From assembly GCA_026770705.1 (NCBI GenBank), contig JANJGN010000121.1, positions 744,001 to 808,000 of the forward strand: DNA of 64,000 nt, given 5' to 3'. Both the position numbers and the translations under genes were made by a program. Shown here in pieces: positions 1-62,079 of this stretch. Below the pieces are notes generated by a model. The model saw only the letters and a program-made list of their open reading frames with translations, had not been told where the DNA came from and did not search any database. How positions within the stretch are numbered: the stretch's first letter is position 1; each line of letters begins with the position of its first letter. This stretch comes from Isurus oxyrinchus (lineage: Eukaryota).

Positions 1-910
1 TAGTTTTGGCTTCATCTTTACTTTGGGACTGACTATCTGTCCCAATCCTTTGCTGCGTCTCCTGGCAACTCCTTTCAACAGAACTGAAAGTACTTTTCTG
101 TTTTTCTCGGTCTCTGTGTGTCCCTCCCTCTGGATCACTGTTGCTAGGCAACAGCACAGTTTCTTCTAACTTGTGTTTGTTTTGACTTCCCTTCAAGAGT
201 TATAAAAACTCATTAGATAGGCGGCTTCTTCCAAAGTGAAACCAAAACTCAAGTTCCCCCTTTTCAAAACACCCAAATACAGAAATACAAACTAAACTTG
301 AACTGAAAGATAGACCTTATGCCTAACGCACACAAATACACAGAGAACTTCCTTAAGCCAACCCCAGTTCTGAAAAATCACATGACGCACTTCCCCTCGA
401 GTGATGTCATGCTGCTGTCCCTGAAAGGCATATTACAACAGTGTTATCACTTGGCAGGTGATGTGTGCCAGGCAGACCAAGTCCCTGAGAGAAAGGTGGT
501 CACACGATCATAATGAATTTGCAATTTGTATTTATTATGAGATGTGTGCACTGAATTCAGAAGCAATAAGTCCACCAAGATCTTTAGAGATTTAAAAAAA
601 TAAATTAAAATATTTGTCACAAAAATAAAAGATTTTAAGCACATACATAAGACTACAATGACAGCTATAATAACTCCAAAAATTCCTAATTAATCTGACT
701 CCCAGTTACACTCCCTTTAAGGCAACAGACCAAAAATAGATTTTAGATTTAAAACAAACCCAGCAAGTTAACACAATGCCCTGGACAATGGAATTCCAAA
801 TGGATTTTCCCCAACTTCAGTTCTGTTGGATAGCAGGCTTGTGCACAAACAGGGTCCTGAGGACCATCAGCCAATGTAGAATGAACTTGTCCACTCCTGT
901 TTCCAGGATT
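1..910. mobile_element. LTR-like repeat fragments in the intron before V1
   Basis: From 442 onward it resembles the reverse complement of the 3' part of the TG..CA-bounded element at 40236-41187. Paralogous copy at ~16466-17370. Confidence 0.5.
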
Positions 911-1065
911 CTCTCCCATCCATTGTGATACCTTGGGGAGTTCCATGTGTGTCCTGTAGATGGTCCACACTGCAGCCACTGTGCCCCAGTGAAGGAGGGG
1001 GTGGATATCGAGTCTAGTGGATCGTCAAAACACACAGAGTTAAATATTAATATTTCTCTCCCCAG

Positions 1066-1443
1066 TTGGACTGTCACAAGAGTGGAAAGGCAACACTCCA
1101 CGAGAGGTGACAGCGCAGGAAGGTTCGTGTGTACAGATTCCATGTCATTACAGTTACTCATCACATTTGGTAAAGAAAACACATGTCGGAATCTGGTATA
1201 TGAGGAGGTACATACAGAACAAATGGTCTAAATGGTCTATAGCCTTTCACGCCAAGCATCACAATCGCGGGTTACCACGGTTCCACCATCGGACCCGGCT
1301 GTCTGGAGACGTGAAAGATGGCAACTGTTCCCTGATTATAAACAACATCAGACAGGAAGATGCAGGACCTTATTTTTTCAGGATAGAATTTGACATTGCT
1401 CCGAGCCATAACTATTACCCTGAAACCCAGCTTCACGTTTCTG
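1066..1443 (+). CDS. Gene A V-set exon V1 (Siglec-type sialic-acid-binding Ig domain, 'basic' C-C' type)
   Basis: Acceptor tttctctccccag, phase 1-1. Encodes GLSQEWKGNTPREVTAQEGSCVQIPCHYSY...GIW...GNCSLIINNIRQEDAGPYFFRIEF...QLHVS. Siglec signature: CxxIPC, E-strand CSL, and F-strand YFFR with no F-strand Cys. Donor is non-canonical G/GCAAGT. Confidence 0.88.
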
Positions 1444-1694
1444 GCAAGTTCTGTGTTATAATTACTCACCAATTCACATCCAACACTCAATGGGAAATAA
1501 TAGTGTTTGATTTGCTTGTTTTTTGGCCGTGTTAACCAGCGTCACTATTTTTAATGATTTGTCTATTTCTGCTCCCAGATCCATGAGCTTATTGTGTGTG
1601 ATTGAATCCACATCATAGCTGTAACGTAAACCGAGCTGAGGGGTGATGACACCTCCCCCCTGAGTGAAGTGTCTCCTCCCCACTACACCTTCCA

Positions 1695-3555
1695 CCCCTC
1701 ACACTGTCCGTGTAAACCCCCGTCCCATCTCCAGCCTCTCTTTCCTCTCCAAAGTCCTTGAACGTGTTTCCATCTCCCGAATCCATTCCCATCTTTCCCG
1801 GATCTCCATGTTTGAATCCCTCCAATCAGGTTCCCACCCCAGCCACTGTGCTGAAACAGCTCTTATCAAGGTCACAAATGGCATCCTGTGTGACTGTGAC
1901 AAAGGTCAACTTTCCTTCCTCGTCCTTCTCGATCTGTCTGCAGCCTTTGACACGCTCGACCACACCATCCTCCTCCAACACCTCTCCACTGTCGTCCAGC
2001 TGGGTGGGACTGCTCTTCCCTGGCTCCATTCTTATCCATCTCATCGTAGCCAGAGAATCACTTGCAATGGCTTTGCAGCATCATCTGAACAGTGTTAGTT
2101 TTCACCTGTCCACTGAGGATCCCCAGCTCTACCTCACCACCACCTCTCTCGACTCCTCCACTGCTGCTAAATTATCAGGCTGCTTATCCGACATCCAGTA
2201 CTGGATGGGCAGAAATTTCCTCCAATTAAATATTGGAAAGACTGAAGCCATTGTCTTCATTCCCCGCTCCAAACTCTGTTCCCTCGCTACCAACTCCATT
2301 CCTCTCCCTGACAGCTCTCTGAGATTGAAGCCAATCTGTTCCCAGCTTTGTTGTCCCATTTGATCCTGAGATGAGCTTCCGGCCTCATATCTGCGCCCTC
2401 ACTAACACCGTCTATTTCCACCTCCGGAACATCGCAAGACTTCACCCTGTCTCAGCTCATCTGCTGCTGAAACCCTCATCCACGCCTTCATTAACTCCAG
2501 TCTTGACTGTTCCAACACACGCTCCACACTCCATCAACTTGAGGCTATCCAGAACTGCTGACCACGTCCTTACTCACACCAAGTCCCATTCCCTTATCAC
2601 CCGCTCTGCTCGATGACCGAGACTGGCTCCTGGTCAAGCAAAGTCTCAATGTCCAAATTTTCATCTTTGTTTCCTCACTATCCCTGTAATCTCCTCGTCC
2701 TCCTCCAGTACCTACAACCCTCCCTATCTCTGTAACCTCCTCCAGCCCCTACAACACTCCCAATCTCTGTAACCTCTTGAAGTATGTACCGCTTCCCTAT
2801 ATCTGTAAATTCATCCTGCCCAACAAACCTACCAATCTCTGCAACCTCCTCCAGCCACTACAAACCTCCCTATTTCTGTAACTTCCTCCTGCCCCTAAAA
2901 GCTTCCCTATCACTGTAGCCTGCTCCAGTCCTGACAACTTTCCCTGCCCCTGTAACCTGCCCCAGTCACTACAACCCCCCCGACCTCTGCAAACTCCTCC
3001 AGACCCTACACTCTCCCAATCTCTCTTAACTTTTCCAGCCCATACAAACCTCCCTATTTCTGTAACTTCCTCCTGCCCCTAAAAGCTTCCCTATCACTGT
3101 AGCCTGCTCCAGTCCCGACAACTTTCCCTGCCCCTGTAACCTGCCCCAGTCACTACAACCTTCCTTCTCTCTGTAACCTCCTCCAGCCCCTCCAACCCTC
3201 TGAGGTCTCTGTGCTCATCCAATTCCAGCCTCTTGACCATCCCCCGATCCCATCACTACAACATCGGCGGCCGTGCCTTCAGCTTCCTGGGGCCCGAGCT
3301 CTGTAATACCCTCCCTCAACCCCTCTCCGTGCCTCTCTCTCACTCTCTCTATCTGTCTCTCTCTCTATTTCTATCTCTCTCTCTCTCTCACTATCCATTT
3401 CATCCCTCTTTTAAGATTCTCCATAACACCGACCTCTTCTGGCCAGCTGTCGCTAATATCTCCACACGTGTCTGGGTGACATACTTTGTTTTATGACGCT
3501 CCTGTGTAGCACCTTGGGGTGATTTGTCATGTTAAAGTTGTTGTGAAAATATAAG
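1695..3555 (+). mobile_element. Degenerate L2/CR1-group LINE (RT fragment, internal C-rich minisatellite, 3' end)
   Basis: RT motifs RPISSLSFLSKVLERV, LVLLDLSAAFDTLDH and LQLNIGKTE; GGRAFS 3' motif; ~37-bp ccctccctatctctgtaacctcctccagcccctacaa repeats. Confidence 0.8.
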
Positions 3556-4109
3556 TTGTTGTCCTTTGACCCTCGACCCCAGATCGAGTCTTATTTTTGA
3601 GGGAATGTACAACCTCCTTAGATTTCTGACCAAAATGTCATTTGATTATTTTCATTGAGCGAATGCCAAGCCCCGATACCGAGCGAGAGCCTCCTCATTT
3701 GCTGAGTTTAGGGTGATGAGTCAGCCCCTTAGTCCGTAGACGGGATTCTCCTTGGTAATGTGCAGCCTTGTTTGTGTCTCCCCACAAGCGCATGAGGGGT
3801 TTGCACAGAGGCTGCAGCGCTGGAGGGGGTCTGCACAGGGGTCCTGGCCTGTCCTGAGCCGGTTTTAGCAAGGACCACTCTGGCCTTGGCAGCTGAAAGC
3901 CAGCCATTGGACAGACGGGGCCTGTCACAAGGAGCCTGTTAGTCACTCCCCACCGTGTCTCCAGTGCTCGGATCCAGACCATGTTGGCTGGTGGATCTGG
4001 CTCAGGAAGGGTCCTCCCCATGGGTCCCCCAGATGGAAGGTGGGTCGAGCGGGTCAGTCACTTGCATGTTTATTCTGCAGCTTTAATATTTTAAGATGGT
4101 AAGAATGTA

Positions 4110-4835
4110 GGATCATAAGAAATAGGGACAGGAGCAGGCCATTCGGCCCCTCGAGCCTGCTCTCACTGATCTGGTTGTGGCCTTAACTCCATTTTCCTGC
4201 CTGTCCCCCAAACCCTTGACTCCCTTGTCGATCAAAAACCTGCCTCACTCAGCCTTGAGTCTATTCAATGGCCCAGCCTCCACTGCTCTCTGGGGAAGAG
4301 AATTCCACAGGCTAGCGCCCCTCTGAGAGAGGAAATTCCTCCTCATCTCAGTCTTAAATGGGAGAGCCCTCATTTCGAAACTGTGCTCCCTGGTTCTAGA
4401 TTCCCCCACGAGGGGGAAACATCCTCCCAGCATCCACCCTGTCAAGCCCCCTCGGAATCGGATATGTTTCAATAAGGTCACCCCTCATTCTTCTAAACTC
4501 CAATGGATACAGGCCCAACCTGCTCAACATTTCCTCACAGGACAAACCCTTTAATCCCAGGAATCAGCCCAGTGAAGCTTCTCTGAACTGCTTGTACACA
4601 ATGATCCTGTTACAATCTCACTAACGCCCTGTGCAGCTGTTGCAAGACTTCCCTCCTTTTATACTCCATCCCTTTGCAATAAAGGCCAACATTCCACTTG
4701 CCTTCCTCATTCCGTGGTGTTCCTGAATGCTGACTTTCTGTGATTCATGTACAAGGACACCCAGATCCCTCTGTACTGCATTCTGCAGCCTGTCTCCATT
4801 TAAATAATATTCTGTTTTTCTATTCTTCCTGCCAA
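4110..4835 (-). mobile_element. CR1-type LINE 3' fragment
   Basis: Minus-strand peptides QRDLGVLVHESQKVS and FKTEMRRNFLSQR..LWNSLPQRAVEA. Confidence 0.8.
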
Positions 4836-4956
4836 TATAATTTGTTGCCATTCTCCTCAGTATTGACCATCCCCCCAATTCAGCCTCATCTGTAAATTTT
4901 GAGTCTAGCGGATCCACAAACCATCCAGAGTTAAATATTGATATTTCTCTCCCCAG

Positions 4957-5325
4957 TTGGACTGTCACAAGAGTGGAAAGGTGACACTCCACGAGAGGTG
5001 ACAGCGCAGGAAGGTTCGTGTGTACAGATTCCATGTCATTACAGTTATCCATCGTGTCTGGAAAACCAACCGCGAGGTGGAGTCTGGTTTAATAATGAGG
5101 AACAGATTCCCTGGGCTCCCATTGCCTTTCACTCCAAGGATCACAGTCATGAGTTACCACGTTTCCACAATCGGACCCGGCTGTCTGGAGACCTGAAACA
5201 TGGCGACTGTTCCCTGATTATAAACAACATCAGACGGGAAGATGCAGGACCTTATTTTTTCAGAATAGAATTTGACAATGGTCCGAGCCATAACTATTAC
5301 CCTGTAACCCAGCTTCACGTTTCTG
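4957..5325 (+). CDS. Gene A V-set exon V2 (Siglec-type, 'acidic' C-C' type)
   Basis: Acceptor ccccag, donor G/GTAAGT, phase 1-1, open frame, motifs GSCVQIPC, GDCSL and YFFRIE. Confidence 0.92.
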
Positions 5326-6053
5326 GTAAGTGCTGTGTTATAATTACTCATTAATTCACATCCAACACTCAATGGGAAATAACACAAACTGTGACGTTTA
5401 CATATTAACACAAAACACAGCTTATTATAACACACTGTCTGATTCTCAATAACCTGGTGATAGCTTCCAGTTCAGTCCTAAAGCAACCTCTAATACTCAC
5501 TTTAATGACAATGATTAAATGTATTGACTGTGTCCATCAATGTTATCAGGTTATCCACTCCCATCGATCTCTCTAATCCTGTCTTGAAGTCTGACATATC
5601 GACAGAAGAAAGATTCACATTTCTGTAGCACCTTTCACCACCTCACCACGGACGAAATCACTTCACAGCCAATGAGCTGATTCCTGAATTGTAGTTACTG
5701 TTGTAATGTGAGAAACACAGCAGCCAATTTGTGCACAGCAAGCTCCCACAAATTGCAAAGTAATAAATGGCCCAGATTGCTGAGTGAATGATGGGGTAGT
5801 GCACTCCAAACTCTGGTCTGCTCCTTCACCCTCACCCACTATTATCAGTTCAAGTGTCTCGGAGTGAACGTGTATTAAGCTGAGAGACAGAAATACCAAA
5901 GTCTCAAAGCAGGAAATTCTCTCCTGATCATTGTAATCTCTCAGATCTGATATCATCCTTGTAAAAGTGCTTTTTCTTGTGGGACTGTGATTTCTATTTG
6001 AACTGATGCTTCACGTTATATTTCTCTAAAAGGATCCATTCTCTGTCTGTTAG

Positions 6054-6350
6054 ATTTCACAGATAAACCCACGATATTCCCTGCTGAAATTATTGCAGGA
6101 AAGCGTGTGGATGTAAGCTGCACCTTCAACACAACGTGCAATGGAACAGCAGCACCTGTCTTAACCTGGGACACTCCCACTGACGTACGTGGATCAGTCT
6201 CAAACACTGTAACTCAGCATGGTGTCAGTCTGACCTATACTTCTGTTCTGACCCTGATCCCATCACTCAAACACCACGGACACACTCTCAGCTGCAGAGT
6301 GAGATATCCATCTGTTTCATCGGAGCGGACCCTCGTACTAACTGTGCAAG
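6054..6350 (+). CDS. Gene A C2-set Ig exon (Siglec domain 2)
   Basis: Acceptor ctgtctgttag, donor G/GTAAGT, phase 1-1. Encodes DFTDKPTIFPAEIIAGKRVDVSCTFNTTCNGTAAPVLTW...HHGHTLSCRVRYP...LTVQ, with the extra Cys typical of Siglec D2. Confidence 0.92.
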
Positions 6351-6673: not shown

Positions 6674-6825
6674 GACATCTGAATATTACAATGAACAGAA
6701 CAAGTTCCAACAATGAGCTGTGGTTGGTGATTCCTCACGTTACATCCAGGGACACTGGAGACTATCAGTGTGCTCAGAGAATGAACATGGAGCAGTGGAG
6801 GGGTTCATAACCATCACTGTGGAAC
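6674..6825 (+). pseudogene. Gene A remnant of C2 domain-3 exon (5' half and acceptor lost, 1-nt deletion)
   Basis: Nearly identical to 30590-30742, but has cagtgtgctcagagaat instead of cagtgtgtggcagagaat (frameshift), and upstream homology is absent. Confidence 0.85.
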
Positions 6826-7946: not shown

Positions 7947-8086
7947 ACAGTGGAGGAGAGATTCTGCACGTGATCCTGATCCTGGGAATACGAGCTGTGA
8001 TATTCCTTGTGGCTGTGGTTATCACTATCGCTGGAGTCTGTGTCTGGGAGAGACAAACAGTGAAAGGAAGTCGACAGACTGTTTGA
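7947..8086 (+). CDS. Gene A transmembrane/terminal coding exon with intramembrane Arg and short tail (activating-type)
   Basis: Acceptor ttctttctgtgtgttctctag, phase 1. Encodes DSGGEILHVILILGIRAVIFLVAVVITIAGVCVWERQTVKGSRQTV*, with Arg codon CGA at 7991-7993. It is not in the ORF track in this frame. Confidence 0.82.
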
Positions 8087-12192: not shown

Positions 12193-12232
12193 ATGATCGG
12201 GAAATCCTACTTCCTCCTGTCACTTCTCCAAG
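12193..12232 (+). CDS. Gene B signal-peptide (leader) coding part of exon 12151-12232
   Basis: Acceptor ctttctctttcag, then ATG giving MIGKSYFLLSLLQ + G/GTAAT in phase 1. Joins in frame to any V exon (MIGKSYFLLSLLQVGLSQEW or ...AEPSQEW). Confidence 0.82.
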
Positions 12233-13869: not shown

Positions 13870-15600
13870 GACCACAATCCACAATTTATTGGCAAGCCAC
13901 GTCAGGATATGTGTGAGAGGTGGAATATCGATCACCGCTCCTAGTCTCGTCGTGTACATCATCGCCATTTCCTGGTTTGTCAGTCACCACATGTATATGT
14001 TCCTGATGGGATAGCGGATGGTCATTCTTATTGCTTGAAGTTACCCCGTTGTGCAGGGTTTGTTTGGATCAGCGCACGGCTCTTTGTAGCTGCATCAGCC
14101 TTTGCTCTAGTGCCCTGCTGCTGTCAATGGCCCTTTCTGCCACAAGCCTTGCAGGATTGGTGGAAAGCTGGGCATTTCCTTGGTGCCTGCAGAAGGCCAC
14201 ACCTTCCACACGTCTCACTAGGTTTGGATGTTCTAGTGAGTGTGTCAACAATTGATGTTGTACTGAGGACCTGTAAGCTTCGTTGACCTGCGAGGATCAC
14301 TTCGTATTTATGTCCATCCTTGAGTAGCTCTTCAATGCTATAGGTTTTGGTCTTATCTAGCAGATCTTTCTGGAAGGCTTCCATGGGAGTGGATGCGATC
14401 ACCAACTCAACAACTCTGTCCGCAGACTCTGTGTTTGAAATCACAGTGCGTACCCTTTTCTCTACATCGGCTGATGAAGTGGTCTATGGATTGTGTAGGC
14501 TGATGAAATGACATAAACTCTAGTTGATGAATATGGAGTTTCACCTGATTCTGAACCTGTCTTCCAATATCGTCCATATCTATTGGGGATCCTTTCGCTC
14601 TTCTGCTGTTAATCCTGATGTGTTCAGCCTGTGTAGACATTCATTCCCAATCACGAGGTGAATTTTTATGGCTTGTTCGTCTGGTTCAGTCACACCTGAA
14701 TCAGGAAACCAGAGCTCTGTATGCTGTTTAAACATCCTGAATTCAGATAGTCGGTCAGCTACATCCCAGTTCAAACTGGGGAATTTCGTGGACATTCTGA
14801 CAATATTCCTTTGACCTTCCTTATCCTACAGGACCTGGGATGAGTGTCGCTTTAGCCCCTTTCATGCGCTTTTCCGAAGCTCTGCCCACGGAGACGGGTT
14901 GTGGCAGGAACACACCACGGAGTAATGGAGTCTTTGTTTTTTATTCAATTTGCTGTTCATCAAACTCAAAGCCGTCCGTTATAATCACTAACTTGTCTGG
15001 GCTGATTTTTATAATGGTTTTTGTGTGTTTGACTCTCCCTTGCTCACTATCGATCCAGCCCACACCCTGGTCACTCGCCTTCCCTGACTGAGCTAACCCG
15101 CTGCTGGTCCTGGCGATACACACTGTCCCACTCACTGACCTACAGGCTGTGTGCTGTAATCTCACCACGAGGGATCCGTCTGCTCCCCAGCTCTTTACTT
15201 GAGCTCTTTCCCGTCACTGTGTCTTCAAAGGTTTCCTGAGCAGTCAGTACACTGCGATTTCAACCCTCTCTGATGCTGTGTCTCTGTTGTGGTCTGACCA
15301 AAGCGTCGAGGATCGTCTCATGTCATCTAGCTCGATCTAAGGCTGTTCACCGCGTCGTACCTGTACTGAATCTTGCTGCCTGAATGTTTGGCCACCGCCG
15401 ATCACCATGTTGTGTTTTTATAATGATATAAAGGCACCAGCCACTGATACGGAATTGGGTAAATACATTGTGGGTTCAGTTATTTAGAATAGTGACATGA
15501 GAACAGATATACAAGGATAGAAAGCTGGGAGACACCTGCAGCCAAACTGTGTGAGCTGTGTTCTGCTCACAGGCCAAAGTGAAACTTGGACTGGATGGTG
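13870..15600 (-). mobile_element. Degenerate Ty3/Gypsy-like LTR retrotransposon (gag, PBS-like site)
   Basis: Minus-strand gag-like peptides MSTKFPSLNWD..FRMFKQ and QSIDHFISRCR, zinc knuckle CPAFHQSCKACGRKGH, and PBS-like TGGTGATCGGCGGTGGC at 15391-15407 (minus). Confidence 0.7.
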
Positions 15601-17514: not shown

Positions 17515-17892
17515 TTGGATTGTCACAAGAGTGGAAAGGTGACACTCCACGAGAGGTGACAGCGCAGGAAGGTTCGTGTGTACAGATTCCATGTCATTAC
17601 AGTTATCCATCAGATTTGGTAAAGAAACCACATGTCGGAATCTGGAAAATGAGAAGATACATACGGAACAAATGGTCTAAATGGTCTATAGCCTTTCACT
17701 CCAAGGGTCACAGTCACGAGTTATCACAGTTCCACCATCGGACCCGGCTGTCTGGAGACCTGAAAGATGGCGACTGTTCCCTGATTATAAACAACATCAG
17801 ACGGGAAGATGCAGGATATTATTTTTTCACGATAAAATTTGGCAATGGTCCGAGACATAACGTTTCCCCTGAAACCCAGCTTCAGGTTTCTG
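17515..17892 (+). CDS. Gene B V-set exon V3 (basic type; essential Arg replaced by Thr)
   Basis: Canonical splice sites, phase 1-1, open frame. YYFFTIKF instead of PYFFRIEF (ACG at 17829-17831). Confidence 0.9.
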
Positions 17893-21083: not shown

Positions 21084-21452
21084 CTGAACCATCACAAGAG
21101 TGGAAAGGTGACACTCCACGAGAGGTGACAGCGCAGGAAGGTTCGTGTGTACAGATTCCATGTCATTACAGTTATCCATCGTGTCTGGAAAACCAAACGC
21201 GAGGTGGAGTCTGGTTTAATAATGAGAAACAGATTCCCTGGGCTCCCATTGCCTTTCACTCCAAGGATCACCGTCACGAGTTACCACGGTTCCACCATCG
21301 GACCCGGCTGTCTGGAGACCTGAAAGATGGCGACTGTTCTCTGATTATAAACAACGTCAGACAGGAAGATGCAGGACCTTATTTTTTCAGGATAGAATTT
21401 GACAATGGTCCGGGACATAACTATTACCCTGTAACCCAGCTTCAGGTTTCTG
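21084..21452 (+). CDS. Gene B V-set exon V4 (acidic type)
   Basis: Acceptor ccccag, donor G/GTAAGT, open frame, YFFRIE. Confidence 0.9.
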
Positions 21453-24400: not shown

Positions 24401-24937
24401 CCTGTCTCCATTTAAATAATATCCTGTTTTTCTATTCTTCCTGCCAAAATAATTTGTTGCCATTTTCCTCAGTATTGATCATCCCCCCAATTCAGCCTCA
24501 TCAGTAAATTTTGAATCTAGTGGATCCACAAACCATCCAGAGTTAAATATTGATATTTCTCTCCCCAGCTGAACCCTCACAAGAGTGGAAAGGTGACACT
24601 CCACGAGAGGTGACAGCGCAGGAAGGTTCGTGTGTACAGATTCCATGTCATTACAGTTATCCATCGTGTCTGGAAAACCAACCGCGAGGTGGAGTCTGGT
24701 TTAATAATGAGGAACAGATTCCCTGGGCTCCCATTGCCTTTCACTCCAAGGAACACAGTCACGAGTTACCACGGTTCCACCATCGGACCCGGCTGTCTGG
24801 AGACCTGAAAGATGGTGACTGTTCCCTGATTATAAACAACATCAGACAGGAAGATGCAGGATCTTATTTTTTCAGGATAGAATTTGACAATGGTCCGAGC
24901 CATAACTATTACCCTGTAACCCAGCTTCACGTTTCTG
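21453..24937 (+). repeat. Second copy of a ~3.5-kb tandem duplication (first copy ~17893-21452) carrying L2 + minisatellite + CR1 + V exon
   Basis: Matching ORFs at offsets of 3560 (18113/21673) and 3485 (20336/23821); 75-bp minisatellite indel. Confidence 0.92.
24569..24937 (+). CDS. Gene B V-set exon V5 (acidic type)
   Basis: Acceptor ccccag, donor G/GTAAGT, open frame, YFFRIE. Confidence 0.92.
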
Positions 24938-30460: not shown

Positions 30461-30742
30461 ATGCACCACAGAATCTCTCAATTACTTCTCTTGATATGAT
30501 TAACGCTTCATCGATCAATATAATTGAGGGGAATTCTGCAGTGATAATCTGCTCTGTCGAGAGCTTCCCAGCTTCTAACCTGACGTGGCGACATCTTAAT
30601 GTCCCAATGAACAGAACAAGTTCCAACAATGAGCTGTGGTTGGTGATTCCTCACGTTACATCCAGGGACACTGGAGACTATCAGTGTGTGGCAGAGAATG
30701 AACATGGAGCAGTGGAGGGGTTCATAACCATCACTGTGGAAC
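30461..30742 (+). CDS. Gene B C2/I-set Ig exon (domain 3)
   Basis: Acceptor atatttttag, donor C/GTGAGT. Encodes YAPQNLSIT...IEGNSAVIICSVESFPASNLTW...DTGDYQCVAENEHG...ITVE, which is CD22/MAG-like. Confidence 0.92.
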
Positions 30743-32734: not shown

Positions 32735-33028
32735 ATAAGCCGGAGATTTCCCAGCAGTCGGAGTGCACTCGGAGATCAGAGGGGGTCACCTGCGTCTGTG
32801 TGGCCACCTCCAACCCACCCGGAGACCTCACCTGGCACCTGCCCAGTGCCAACATCAGTGGTAACCAAACACACGGAGGTTTTGTGTCGTGGCAGGTCAG
32901 AGATGGGCATCTGGTGACTGGTTTCCTCACCCTGATGAGACCCCAGGATGAGGGGGGAGTGATTGCATCCTGCTCGGTTCAAAACCCACATGGGGAAGCC
33001 ATGTTCAAGATGTATCTGTGGGTCAAAG
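32735..33028 (+). CDS. Gene B membrane-proximal Ig exon (MAG domain-5-like)
   Basis: Acceptor ccttccctcctcag, donor G/GTGAGA. Encodes HKPEISQQSECTRRSEGVTCVCVATSNPPGDLTW...SCSVQNPHG...LWVK, with the C-x8-CxC-xxxSNP pattern of MAG-like membrane-proximal domains. Confidence 0.9.
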
Positions 33029-34314: not shown

Positions 34315-34411
34315 GTAGAGACTCCAGTAAATGGACAGTAGGATTGTTCACGGCTGGGATCATGTTGAGTGTTTTCCTGGCTGGAATCTTCATCTTCATC
34401 TGTGTGAGAAA
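34315..34411 (+). CDS. Gene B transmembrane exon (uncharged)
   Basis: Acceptor tgtttttacag, donor AA/GTAAGT, phase 1-2. Encodes GRDSSKWTVGLFTAGIMLSVFLAGIFIFICVRK. Confidence 0.9.
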
Positions 34412-35133
34412 GTAAGTCTGAAGATTTAACTTGATTTTAATCTAAACATTTGCTTAGGACTAATTGGACAGTTTTTACAAAAGGCCAGCACAGGCACGAT
34501 GGGCTGAGTGGCTTCCTCCTAAGCTGTGAGATTTTAAATTCTTTCATCGAATGTGGCTGTCATTGGCGTGGACAATACTAATTGCCCATTCCCAATTGCC
34601 CCTTGAGAAAGAGGTGGTGAGCTGCCTTCTTGACCCACTACAGTCTATGTGGTGTAGGTACACCCACAGTGTTGTTAGAGAGGGAGTTCCAGGATTTTGA
34701 CCCAGCGACAGTGAAGGAACGGTGATATATTTCCAAGTCAGGATGGTGAGTGACTTGGAGGGGAACTTCCAGGTGGTGGTGTTCCCATGTGTCTGCTGCC
34801 CTTGTCCTTCTAGATGGTAGAGGTCGTGGGTTTGGAAGGTGCTGTTGAAGGAGCCTTGCTGAGTTGCTGCAGTGCATCTTGTAGATGGTACACACACTGC
34901 TTCCACTGTGTGTTCGTGGTGGAGGGAGTGAATGTTTAATGTGGTGGATGGGGTGTTGATCAATCGAGCTGCTTTGTCCTGGATGGTGTCAAGCTTCTTG
35001 ATTCTGTGCTTTGTGCAGAAGTGATTTAAAGAGACAGTCCAGTCGTTGGTGTAAGCTAACAGTGGGCTCTGTGTCTGTGCTGCACTGACTCTCTGCTATA
35101 TGATAACCACAGTGTGATATTGTGTTATTGCAG

Positions 35134-35215
35134 GAGAAAGACAGCGATGGAGGAGAGAGTTTCAGGGACCAGTGACATTGCATTGAGCCCCAGTTCACTC
35201 TCTGTGAAGCACCAG
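35134..35215 (+). CDS. Gene B juxtamembrane cytoplasmic exon, cassette a
   Basis: Acceptor ttattgcag, donor CAG/GTACAG, phase 2-0. Encodes RKTAMEERVSGTSDIALSPSSLSVKHQ, in frame with the TM exon. Confidence 0.82.
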
Positions 35216-35350
35216 GTACAGGAGCTGTTTACACTCACTCCAAAGCTTCAATCTCAGTGTGTAGACAACACGTGTCCCAGATTCCCAGCCCAGTTACCCA
35301 CTGATTTGTACCTGTGGAGTCAGCAATGTTTCAGTATCATGCTGTCTCTC

Positions 35351-36105
35351 TGTTATGACACAGCAACTGGTAAAGACTGTTGTTTAAAATCCCAGAGGGA
35401 AACTTTAAACAACTGTCATAACCTATATTTCCCAGTGGAATGTTTGAGATGCAGCTCTAAATTCAGGAATAAGACCACCAGTTCTCGAGATGGTTTTATA
35501 TCAAACTACATGAGCCATTTATTAATTAACACAAGTTAAACATATGCACATGGCTACAAACTAGTATTATCATAACTTTTTAACAAATTCCCAAACTAAT
35601 CTCCTCTAAGATAACCCATAGAATTTAAGCAGACACCCAGGCAAAGCATTTTCACCTCACAAATTCCAAATGAGGTTCCTTTCACTTTGGTTCCTTTGCA
35701 GACAGGTGTAGGCTTACAGCTGTTTTGATGTTACAAGCCTCTGCTCTGCACACACAAAACTGCTCAAGTTATACCCAGCTCTTCTCTTTGAATGTAAATT
35801 CTAATTGTATCATCAGGACCTTTGAACTCCATCCCTTCAAACAATAAATCCTCTGTCATAGTATCAATTTTATCAATAAAATAAATGTTGATTGGTTTAA
35901 GATTTCACTCTCAGGCGTTGAATGCTCTGTTTAAAAATACAAATTTTTATGCCTCAGTTTACATCTCAAAACTACTATACATCAAATACCCAGACTGGCT
36001 GGCTTTAATCCAATTAAAACACACAGAGACACACCCACAGACTAAACCCCGATGTGAATAAAAATAATTTCCAATAACATGATATTTATTAATCGCATCA
36101 TGACA
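35351..36105. mobile_element. Probable solo LTR (paralog from ~38272)
   Basis: TGTTATGA...TCATGACA imperfect inverted termini; similar fragments elsewhere in the window. Confidence 0.5.
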
Positions 36106-36615
36106 GTCTCTCTCTCTATCCCAACCTCCCTTTCTTTCTCTCTCTCTCTCTTTCTCTCTCTCTCATCCTCTCTCTGATTACAAGGTGCATGTTAATGAGC
36201 TTCACACCAGACACTTGAGTGCAGAATCCAACTGTCACTCACCAGAACCATTACCGAGGGAGTGCAAGACTGACAGAGGGTCAGTACTGAGGGAGTGCTG
36301 CACTGTCGGAGGGTCAGTACTGAGGGCGAGCTGCACTGTCGGAGTGTCAGTACTGAGGGAGCGCTGCACTGTCGGAGGGTCAGTAATGAGGGAGCGCTGC
36401 ACTGTCGGAGGGTCAGTACTGAGGGAGTGCTGCACTGTCGGAGGGTCAGTCCTGAGGGAATGCTGCACTGCCATAGGTGGTATCTTTCATATGACATGAG
36501 AGAGAGGGTTAAGCCAACTGAGACACGACTGACATTAACAAGGCTGCACAATAATTTAACCCTATCAGTGCCAGTAAATGATGTGAGGATATCTTCTGTT
36601 TCGATTTCTCTGTAG

Positions 36616-36864
36616 GTTAAACAGAACGTGCTGATTACTGAGCCCCAGAACACAAAGAGAGACGCAACTGGCGAGGGGGAGACCCCAGCTCCCTGGGGTC
36701 TCTCTGAAGATGCAGTGGGAGGCGATGTTGGACATGGGAACCCTGACAAACCTGAAGAGTTTCTCTACGCCAATCCCCAAGTCTTGAGGATGTCCAGTGG
36801 TGATGGGTCTGTCCACAGGGAAGTGGAGACGGAATACGCACAGATCAGGTTCGAGCATAACTGA
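36616..36864 (+). CDS. Gene B terminal exon, cassette a (FLYANP + ITSM-like TEYAQI)
   Basis: Acceptor tttctctgtag, phase 0. Encodes VKQNVLITEP...EEFLYANPQV...ETEYAQIRFEHN*. AATAAA at 37432-37437. Confidence 0.85.
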   Translation, partial: VKQNVLITEPQNTKRDATGEGETPAPWGLSEDAVGGDVGHGNPDKPEEFLYANPQVLRMSSGDGSVHREVETEYAQIRFEHN

Positions 36865-37061
36865 ATGAGAAATGGGGAGAGTGAGTGAGGAGGTATGGGG
36901 GTGGGGGTAGTGATTGAGATTCCTGGGAACAGGAAACAACCCACTGGGGGAGAGGGGGAGAGAGGGAGGAAGGGATGGAATTGGGCTGCGGTTGGTGTGG
37001 TTTGGAATGAAATGCTTCTCCAGAGAGGACTGGATGCTGAGCCATTGGGGATAGAGATTCA

Positions 37062-37092
<31 letters not shown>

Positions 37093-61830: not shown

Positions 61831-62079
61831 GGTAAACAGAACGTGCTGATTACTGAGCCCCGGAACACAACCAGAGACACAACTAGCGAGGGGGAGACCC
61901 CAGCTCCCCGGGGTGTCTCTGAATGTGCAGTGGGAGGCAATGCTGGACATGGGAACCCCGACAATCCCGACGAGTTTCTCTACGCCAATCCCCAAGTCTT
62001 CAGGGTGCCCAGTGGTGATGGGTCTGTCCACAGGGAAGAGCAGACGGAATACGCACAGATCAGATTCAAGAGAAACTGA
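61831..62079 (+). CDS. Gene C terminal cytoplasmic exon (FLYANP + TEYAQI); gene probably non-functional
   Basis: Paralog of the 36616 and 39696 exons, intact acceptor and frame, AATAAA at 62687-62692. Confidence 0.8.
   Translation, partial: GKQNVLITEPRNTTRDTTSEGETPAPRGVSECAVGGNAGHGNPDNPDEFLYANPQVFRVPSGDGSVHREEQTEYAQIRFKRN

Follow-up and report, generated by a model that had tools for sequence, protein, structure and literature searches.

The 64,000-nucleotide (nt) stretch of the shark Isurus oxyrinchus genome analysed here (contig JANJGN010000121.1 of assembly GCA_026770705.1, positions 744,001 to 808,000; hereafter the window, with positions counted from its first base unless a contig is named) carries two neighbouring putative Siglec-like receptor genes on the forward strand: gene A, with an activating-type transmembrane (TM) exon, and gene B, with an inhibitory-type one. 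Both contain tandem exons for V-set immunoglobulin (Ig) domains. In gene A, the 3' end of a long intron (1..1065, paralogous to gene B intron 1) is followed by V1 (1066-1443; 378 nt, net charge +6), a basic, head-type Siglec V-set exon that keeps the essential arginine, and by V2 (4957-5325; 369 nt, charge -4), an acidic V-set exon that keeps the arginine and has an extra cysteine in the BC loop (YPSCLEN). Gene B has a basic head-type exon with threonine in place of the essential arginine, V3 (17515-17892; 378 nt, charge +6), and two acidic exons with the extra cysteine, V4 (21084-21452; 369 nt, charge -4; containing ENQTRGGVWFNNEKQ) and V5 (24569-24937; 369 nt, charge -7). All five are open, in phase 1-1 and preceded by an identical AG acceptor; the donor is GC in V1 (CTG/GCAAGT) and GT in the other four. 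Nucleotide identity is 90.7% between V1 and V3, 95.1% between V2 and V4 and 96.5% between V2 and V5, against 86-87% between the basic and acidic classes, and the paralogy extends to the flanks, window base 2 aligning to 16467 (88.9% identity over 3231 nt). A sequence-only reading of the window had described five open V exons in basic-then-acidic order in both genes, with paralogous flanking sequence; its coordinates, lengths and motifs are all borne out.

The same reading matched V1 with V3 by length and motif; at the residue level the two proteins differ at 26 of 125 positions (79% identity), including the essential arginine (YFFRIE in V1, YFFTIK in V3). V1 has no BC-loop cysteine. Net charge was tried as a marker of V class and set aside as too loose, with V1-type heads averaging +1.7 and V3-type heads +7.4; on the exons compared here, the position of a V exon and its BC-loop cysteine separate the classes better than charge alone.

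The Pfam V-set and Ig_CD22 models match all five V exons above cut-off, and C2-set_2 matches the C2-set exon that follows V2 (C1 of gene A, 6054..6350). The best matches of V2 among solved structures (PDB) are Siglec-5, -8, -7, CD33 and MAG, the scores for CD33-related proteins and MAG being close; a Foldseek search confirmed the V plus C match to CD33 and MAG and nothing beyond it. The F-strand arginine of V2 aligns with Siglec-5 YFFRVE and is also present in V1, V4 and V5. All 82 intact first V exons and all but one of the 61 intact later ones retain the three V-domain cysteines of the Siglec pattern (residues, not bonds), and the BC-loop cysteine of C1 aligns, at the residue level, with MAG domain 2. 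Judged by these domains, genes A and B are members of a shark Siglec-like receptor family. Siglecs usually have one N-terminal V-set domain (PMC5701461, in the part available), a layout from which the genomic orders V-V-V-C in gene B and V-C-V-V-C in gene A depart. The cysteine-bearing second V may still bind sialic acid.

The family is large and tandem V exons are common in it. Pattern searches of the genome gave 693 V exons (71 of the basic 378-nt class, 278 with the extra-cysteine V pattern) and 227 activating-type and 226 inhibitory-type TM exons, and at least 150 exons are 93-100% identical to V2; these copy counts may include haplotype duplicates in the assembly. A sample of 1.66 Mb in 46 segments, comprising 163 V exons and 83 gene models and including 44 of the 71 basic-class exons, was analysed in detail. 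Its arrays run from 2 to at least 6 V exons per gene and occur with all tail types; in contiguous blocks, among which the one on C71 (like C52 another contig of the same genome) was picked for holding the copy of gene A, tandem V exons were found in 13 of 30 genes (6 inhibitory, 5 activating and 2 with a third TM type). RefSeq models with tandem V exons, which are predictions with automatic names and not cDNAs, are present for Carcharodon (both tail types), Cetorhinus, Scyliorhinus, Mustelus, Chiloscyllium, Rhincodon and the ray Hypanus. Eighty homologs are all shark or ray annotation models bar one protein, the closest coming from lamniform sharks. The proposal that the multi-V layout is no one-off accident thus stands, as it occurs on activating and inhibitory genes and in models from other sharks and a ray. 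Elsewhere in the genome, eight cysteine-type V exons follow one another at a spacing of about 2 kb (G000:C52:2282410-2296541).

The extra BC-loop cysteine is tied to position. Of 69 V exons with another V in front of them, 66 carry it; among 61 first V exons the sole carrier is a pseudogene. In this count, 33 of the 163 exons were unscored (32 with the 5' side out of view, one unreadable). Within the acidic class only, the figures are 66 of 68 and 1 of 25. In 82 homologous proteins of other species the cysteine is found in 34 of 41 later V domains and 1 of 79 first ones, with 7 unscored. On these patterns, V1-V2 is a family-wide cassette, consisting of a variable head V and a cysteine-bearing second V.

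If gene A were colinear with gene B, its leader would be expected about 4 kb upstream of the window. No leader exon was found within 10 kb of V1, including at that position; gene A has lost its leader by a deletion and is fused behind a gene that lacks a TM exon. The nearest leader, 13 kb upstream, belongs to this partner, which is otherwise intact (leader at C121:732047, V0 at 732949-733317 and C1 at 734176-734472; C121 is the window's own contig). Homology to gene B intron 1, interrupted by a 3.5-kb insertion, runs upstream to C121:736274 and stops just short of the expected leader; the junction (G000:C121:736274-736277) lies 7.7 kb upstream of the window, its two sides share 4 nt (GATT), and beyond it the sequence is the pre-TM intron of the partner, itself an activating-type gene. 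The undeleted arrangement is found at C71:609668-635078, where a complete activating gene precedes a gene with its own leader. This downstream gene shares the GC donor with gene A, to which it is 98.5% identical over 16,090 nt; relative to the C71 locus, about 4.7 kb with the TM exon and leader is missing in A. The sequence-only reading had listed membership of V1 in a separate truncated gene as an outcome that would refute it, and the fusion comes close to that outcome.

The junction recurs at 14 loci, all of them in the detailed sample, of which 6 end in an activating and 8 in an inhibitory TM exon, with three different head classes behind it. The leader is in view in 11 fused copies, and in 9 of these every exon checked is open. 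Along gene A, the closest sequences are other fused copies upstream and the C71 gene downstream, a switch that suggests a crossover within the long intron. The seven exons that make up the fused unit of gene A are all open and phase-compatible, and gene A likely encodes an activating receptor of the form leader-V0-C1-V1-V2-C1-TM(Arg), as read from these exons.

Gene A might instead be a silent, leaderless remnant, the cassette functioning elsewhere and the upstream half giving a short secreted leader-V0-C1 protein or nothing. We think this unlikely, though it is the alternative that fares best. A remnant would agree with the lack of a leader within 10 kb of V1, with the GC donor, with the stop that ends read-through of the upstream C1 intron after 18 residues and with the absence of a C1-to-V joint among the RNA contig joints listed. 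Against it, the seven exons are open and phase-compatible, and neither AATAAA nor ATTAAA occurs between the upstream C1 and the junction. The fused copies cut both ways: 2 of 11 are broken, and in a further one the upstream C1 has a CT donor, yet copying has carried the junction to 14 loci and 9 of 11 copies are open.

The second question is whether the V exons are used in series. In Siglecs, as described in the available portion of PMC10122656, a V-domain cysteine bonds a cysteine of the next (C2) domain. The BC-loop cysteine lies six residues past the B-strand cysteine in C1 and seven in V2, and its near-confinement to V exons that are not first favours use in series, with V domains that would be disulfide-linked. 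If the V exons were alternative cassettes, the leader being spliced to one V (or the heads skipped) so that each gene made several single-V receptors, a cysteine V in first place would have an unpaired cysteine, and the genome offers 1 case in 61, a pseudogene. Alternative use would suit the phase and acceptor common to all V exons and the presence of leader-V and V-C1 joints, with no V-V joint, among the RNA joints listed, but a leader-V read from a single-V gene can mis-map, the first 85 nt or so being common to V starts. A Carcharodon isoform that skips the head V (P0101) is a further point for it; against it, RefSeq models from six shark genera and one ray have V joined to V, although these models are predictions. 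We judge this alternative to be quite improbable.

The RNA data consist of contigs from two sets of four runs each, two runs being in both sets, whose RNA status is presumed; exon depth in them is unusable for ranking exons. At the family level they contain spliced leader-V, V-C1, C1-C2 and C1-TM(Arg) joints, with the V-to-C1 joint in 4 of 4 runs of the second set.

A final suggestion of the sequence-only reading was that each inhibitory specificity may have an activating counterpart. This is true of some head classes across the family and not of the neighbours A and B, nor of the V1 class in the sample. Each of V1-V5 has closer relatives on other contigs than within the window: the nearest relative of V1 (99.5% identical) is on C71, and the nearest activating relatives of V3 (97.1% identical) are on C71 and C52. 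A tree of 56 basic-class V exons places V1 and V3 in different clades, and its tail labels change at least 14 times. V1-type heads keep the arginine; of 12 in head position, 11 belong to activating genes and one is unassigned. The sole inhibitory carrier of a V1-type exon is a broken copy in second position, leaving 0 of 12 on intact inhibitory genes. The essential arginine is missing from 31 of 31 V3-type exons (27 threonine, 4 methionine), carried by 16 inhibitory, 7 activating and 6 third-type genes and 2 unassigned ones. Identical head exons on activating and inhibitory genes were found in two sets.

Paired heads on opposite tails thus occur at the family level for the V3-type and two other head classes and not for the V1-type; the signalling modules opposed in this way are an arginine-containing TM with a short tail and an uncharged TM with LLYANI and TEYAQI (motifs only). 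The ligand-binding domains of A and B are not near-identical (26 of 125 residues differ, the arginine included), V1 and V3 belong to different subclasses with closer partners elsewhere, and A is a fusion. That A and B form a dedicated pair, one activating and one inhibitory, whose specificities mirror each other as in SIGLEC5/14, is hardly credible and largely refuted by these comparisons, since the shared V class order, adjacency, opposite tails and 97.6% identical C1 exons are outweighed by the 79% protein identity of V1 and V3, the arginine lost from V3, the closer relatives of all five V exons on other contigs, the separate clades and the fusion. Gene A is, on this evidence, not the counterpart of gene B, and matching is many-to-many by head class. 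The third TM exon type (G000:C121:846240 and others), on 6 of 31 V3-type genes, is uncharged and 75% identical to the inhibitory TM.

V exons at the head of arrays are no more decayed than others. Broken exons number 4 of 57 among array heads, 8 of 69 among later V exons, 9 of 37 among single V exons and 9 of 90 among C1 exons; random decay of the upstream V exons, which had been named as a possible refutation, is not what these counts show. The five common V lengths, covering 154 of 163 exons, all keep the frame. The pooled pairwise ratio of nonsynonymous to synonymous substitution rates (dN/dS) is 0.95 for first and 0.58 for later V exons, the pairs not being independent, and amino-acid distance is 0.22 and 0.09, respectively; for single pairs, dN/dS is 1.8 for V1/V3 and 0.41 for V2/V5. 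A pairwise dN/dS of 2.9 among V3-type heads was considered as a sign of positive selection and set aside, the variant counts not being significant. V4 resembles V5 over the whole exon and V3 in the intron behind it, with the switch between 21489 and 21510; this mosaic points to a product of unequal crossover.

The reading of the V1-V2 cassette in gene A as part of a two-headed, fused receptor is, overall, moderately probable in our view. Several observations weigh against it. As to splicing, the donor of the upstream C1 is GTAATT, and 10.6 kb of fused intron would have to be removed; the GC donor of V1 is common only to the C71 copy among 163 exons, so V1 may be skipped. V-V and C1-V joints were not among the 15 and 10 joints listed for two contig sets (the first has 214 more, there are 195 further loose ends, and contigs show presence, not absence). 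Searches for proteins spanning a V-V joint gave 2 and 32 matches, all of them genome-annotation models and none transcript-derived; a single Logan protein cluster among the homologs (P0079) is not multi-V. As to the cysteine rule, five further Carcharodon RefSeq models, outside the 82-protein count, have a cysteine V first (P0101, P0103, P0105, P0107 and P0109; P0101 is a skip isoform of the gene of P0010), and since the copies are related, Fisher tests overstate independence. The AlphaFold model of a tandem-V homolog has a predicted template modelling score (pTM) of 0.44 and is uninformative on domain packing; the excess of replacement changes among V3-type heads is not significant (9 silent and 38 replacement variants versus 27 and 70, p=0.31); and haplotype duplicates may swell the genome counts. 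Models from other species include the fused V-C-V-V-C form only as one read-through-like Cetorhinus isoform (P0090).

In the two-headed fused receptor as we picture it, tandem V exons would be spliced in series, and the interdomain V cysteine of Siglecs would pair with the BC-loop cysteine of the next V, as it does with that of the C domain in single-V genes. All cysteines could then be paired: V0-C1, V1-V2 and V2-C1 in gene A, and V3-V4, V4-V5 and V5-C1 in gene B. Unequal crossover or conversion in near-identical introns would lengthen the arrays, V4 being an example, and would move heads among activating, inhibitory and third-type tails; such movement would lead to activating/inhibitory matching for some classes family-wide and not between neighbours. 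The arginine in the TM would, by analogy, recruit an adaptor with an immunoreceptor tyrosine-based activation motif. The head V may be a diversified recognition unit and the cysteine V a more conserved extender. Tentatively, sharks may have a germline, non-rearranging combinatorial repertoire in which about 450 Siglec-like genes, or more, combine a diversified head V, anywhere from no to several disulfide-stapled extender V domains and one of three tails as interchangeable parts; some head classes would have given up sialic-acid binding, and the two-headed V-C-V-V-C form, born of a deletion, would have spread to 14 expressed copies with activating or inhibitory tails.

If the counts hold, this paired-receptor family of a cartilaginous fish greatly exceeds the mammalian Siglec cluster in size, and its activating-type and inhibitory-type membrane exons stand near 1:1. 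The restriction of the extra cysteine to V domains that are not first gives a testable rule for the stacking of lectin domains, and the junction would be a case of a new receptor architecture born of a non-homologous deletion and then spreading. Look-alike neighbours in such clusters are not necessarily functional pairs.

Comparison with known systems follows the available parts of the cited papers. In the primate paired Siglecs SIGLEC5/SIGLEC14 and SIGLEC11/SIGLEC16, ectodomains are shared by gene conversion while signalling differs (PMC4042635, PMC5701461, PMC13358205). The likeness lies in a V-set plus C2-set ectodomain on a form with an immunoreceptor tyrosine-based inhibitory motif (ITIM)-type tail and on a charged-TM form, homogenised by recombination; the primate system, though, has two pairs, whereas the shark has about 227 activating and 226 inhibitory TM exons, with many-to-many matching by head class and a tail bias in some heads, and A and B are unmatched. 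The human SIGLEC14/5 fusion allele also arose by a deletion that puts the 3' part of one gene under the 5' part of its neighbour (PMC4042635). That fusion is homologous and encodes plain Siglec-5 with no added domains (PMC4042635), whereas the shark junction is non-homologous (4 shared nt), would add domains (V-C-V-V-C) and is found in 14 copies with both tails. Siglec-12 (Siglec-XII) has two V-set domains, with R122C in humans; it resembles the shark receptors in two V-sets in series and a head domain without the essential arginine (PMC6288428, as far as its text was available), and it differs in being a single primate gene, against 2 to at least 6 V exons, all tails and a position-linked cysteine in this shark. 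The shark and ray RefSeq models have the same leader, V, C1 and TM exons and tandem-V order, with both tails in Carcharodon. The accessible part of PMC13262535 makes no statement on shark Siglecs, and a literature search, with subscription journals and supplements outside its scope, listed nothing on an expansion of Siglecs in sharks, on arrays of tandem V exons or on this fusion.

The remaining exons of gene A are a remnant (3' half) of a second C-type exon (6674..6825), typical of the family's activating genes and skipped by the C1-to-TM joint, and the activating-type TM exon (7947..8086), with an arginine within the membrane span, a short tail and a stop. Gene B starts with a leader exon (12193..12232; MIGKSYFLLSLLQ), whose leader-to-V joint is seen as a loose end in RNA contigs. 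After its V exons come C1 (25750..26046), a second C-type Ig exon (30461..30742), a membrane-proximal Ig exon (32735..33028) and an uncharged, inhibitory-type TM exon (34315..34411). The first cytoplasmic exon lies at 35134-35215 and is followed at about 36616-36864 by the first tail exon, which has FLYANPQV and TEYAQI; the duplicate cytoplasmic exon lies at 38055-38136, and the duplicate tail exon, at 39696-39944, has LLYANI and TEYAQI. We take LLYANI to be of ITIM type and TEYAQI to be of immunoreceptor tyrosine-based switch motif type.

The cytoplasmic and tail exons of gene B are thus tandemly doubled (34522-39959), with differing tyrosine motifs (FLYANPQV and LLYANI), and nearby inhibitory genes show the same doubling. 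Downstream, a divergent leader (MGEVGLILIFISLLQ) and a V-like exon ending just past the DxxxY motif (50792-51965) form an amplified truncated gene, with copies of 97-99% identity at C121:449968, 570134, 615770 and 635961. Two open frames that look retroelement-like by eye and are without a Pfam match lie in gene B intron 1 (14127-14483, reverse strand) and after the truncated V (52009-52620, forward strand). An orphan third tail exon (61831-62079) has no preceding TM exon within the window, and similar orphan tails occur elsewhere on C121. Across the family, the numbers of V exons and of C exons both contribute to variation in ectodomain length: an inhibitory gene at G000:C121:580123-595309 has 13 tandem second C-type exons, and others have 7 or 8. 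Leaders are repeated as well, with three tandem leader exons before one V at G000:C121:812097-815709 and double leaders at several other genes.

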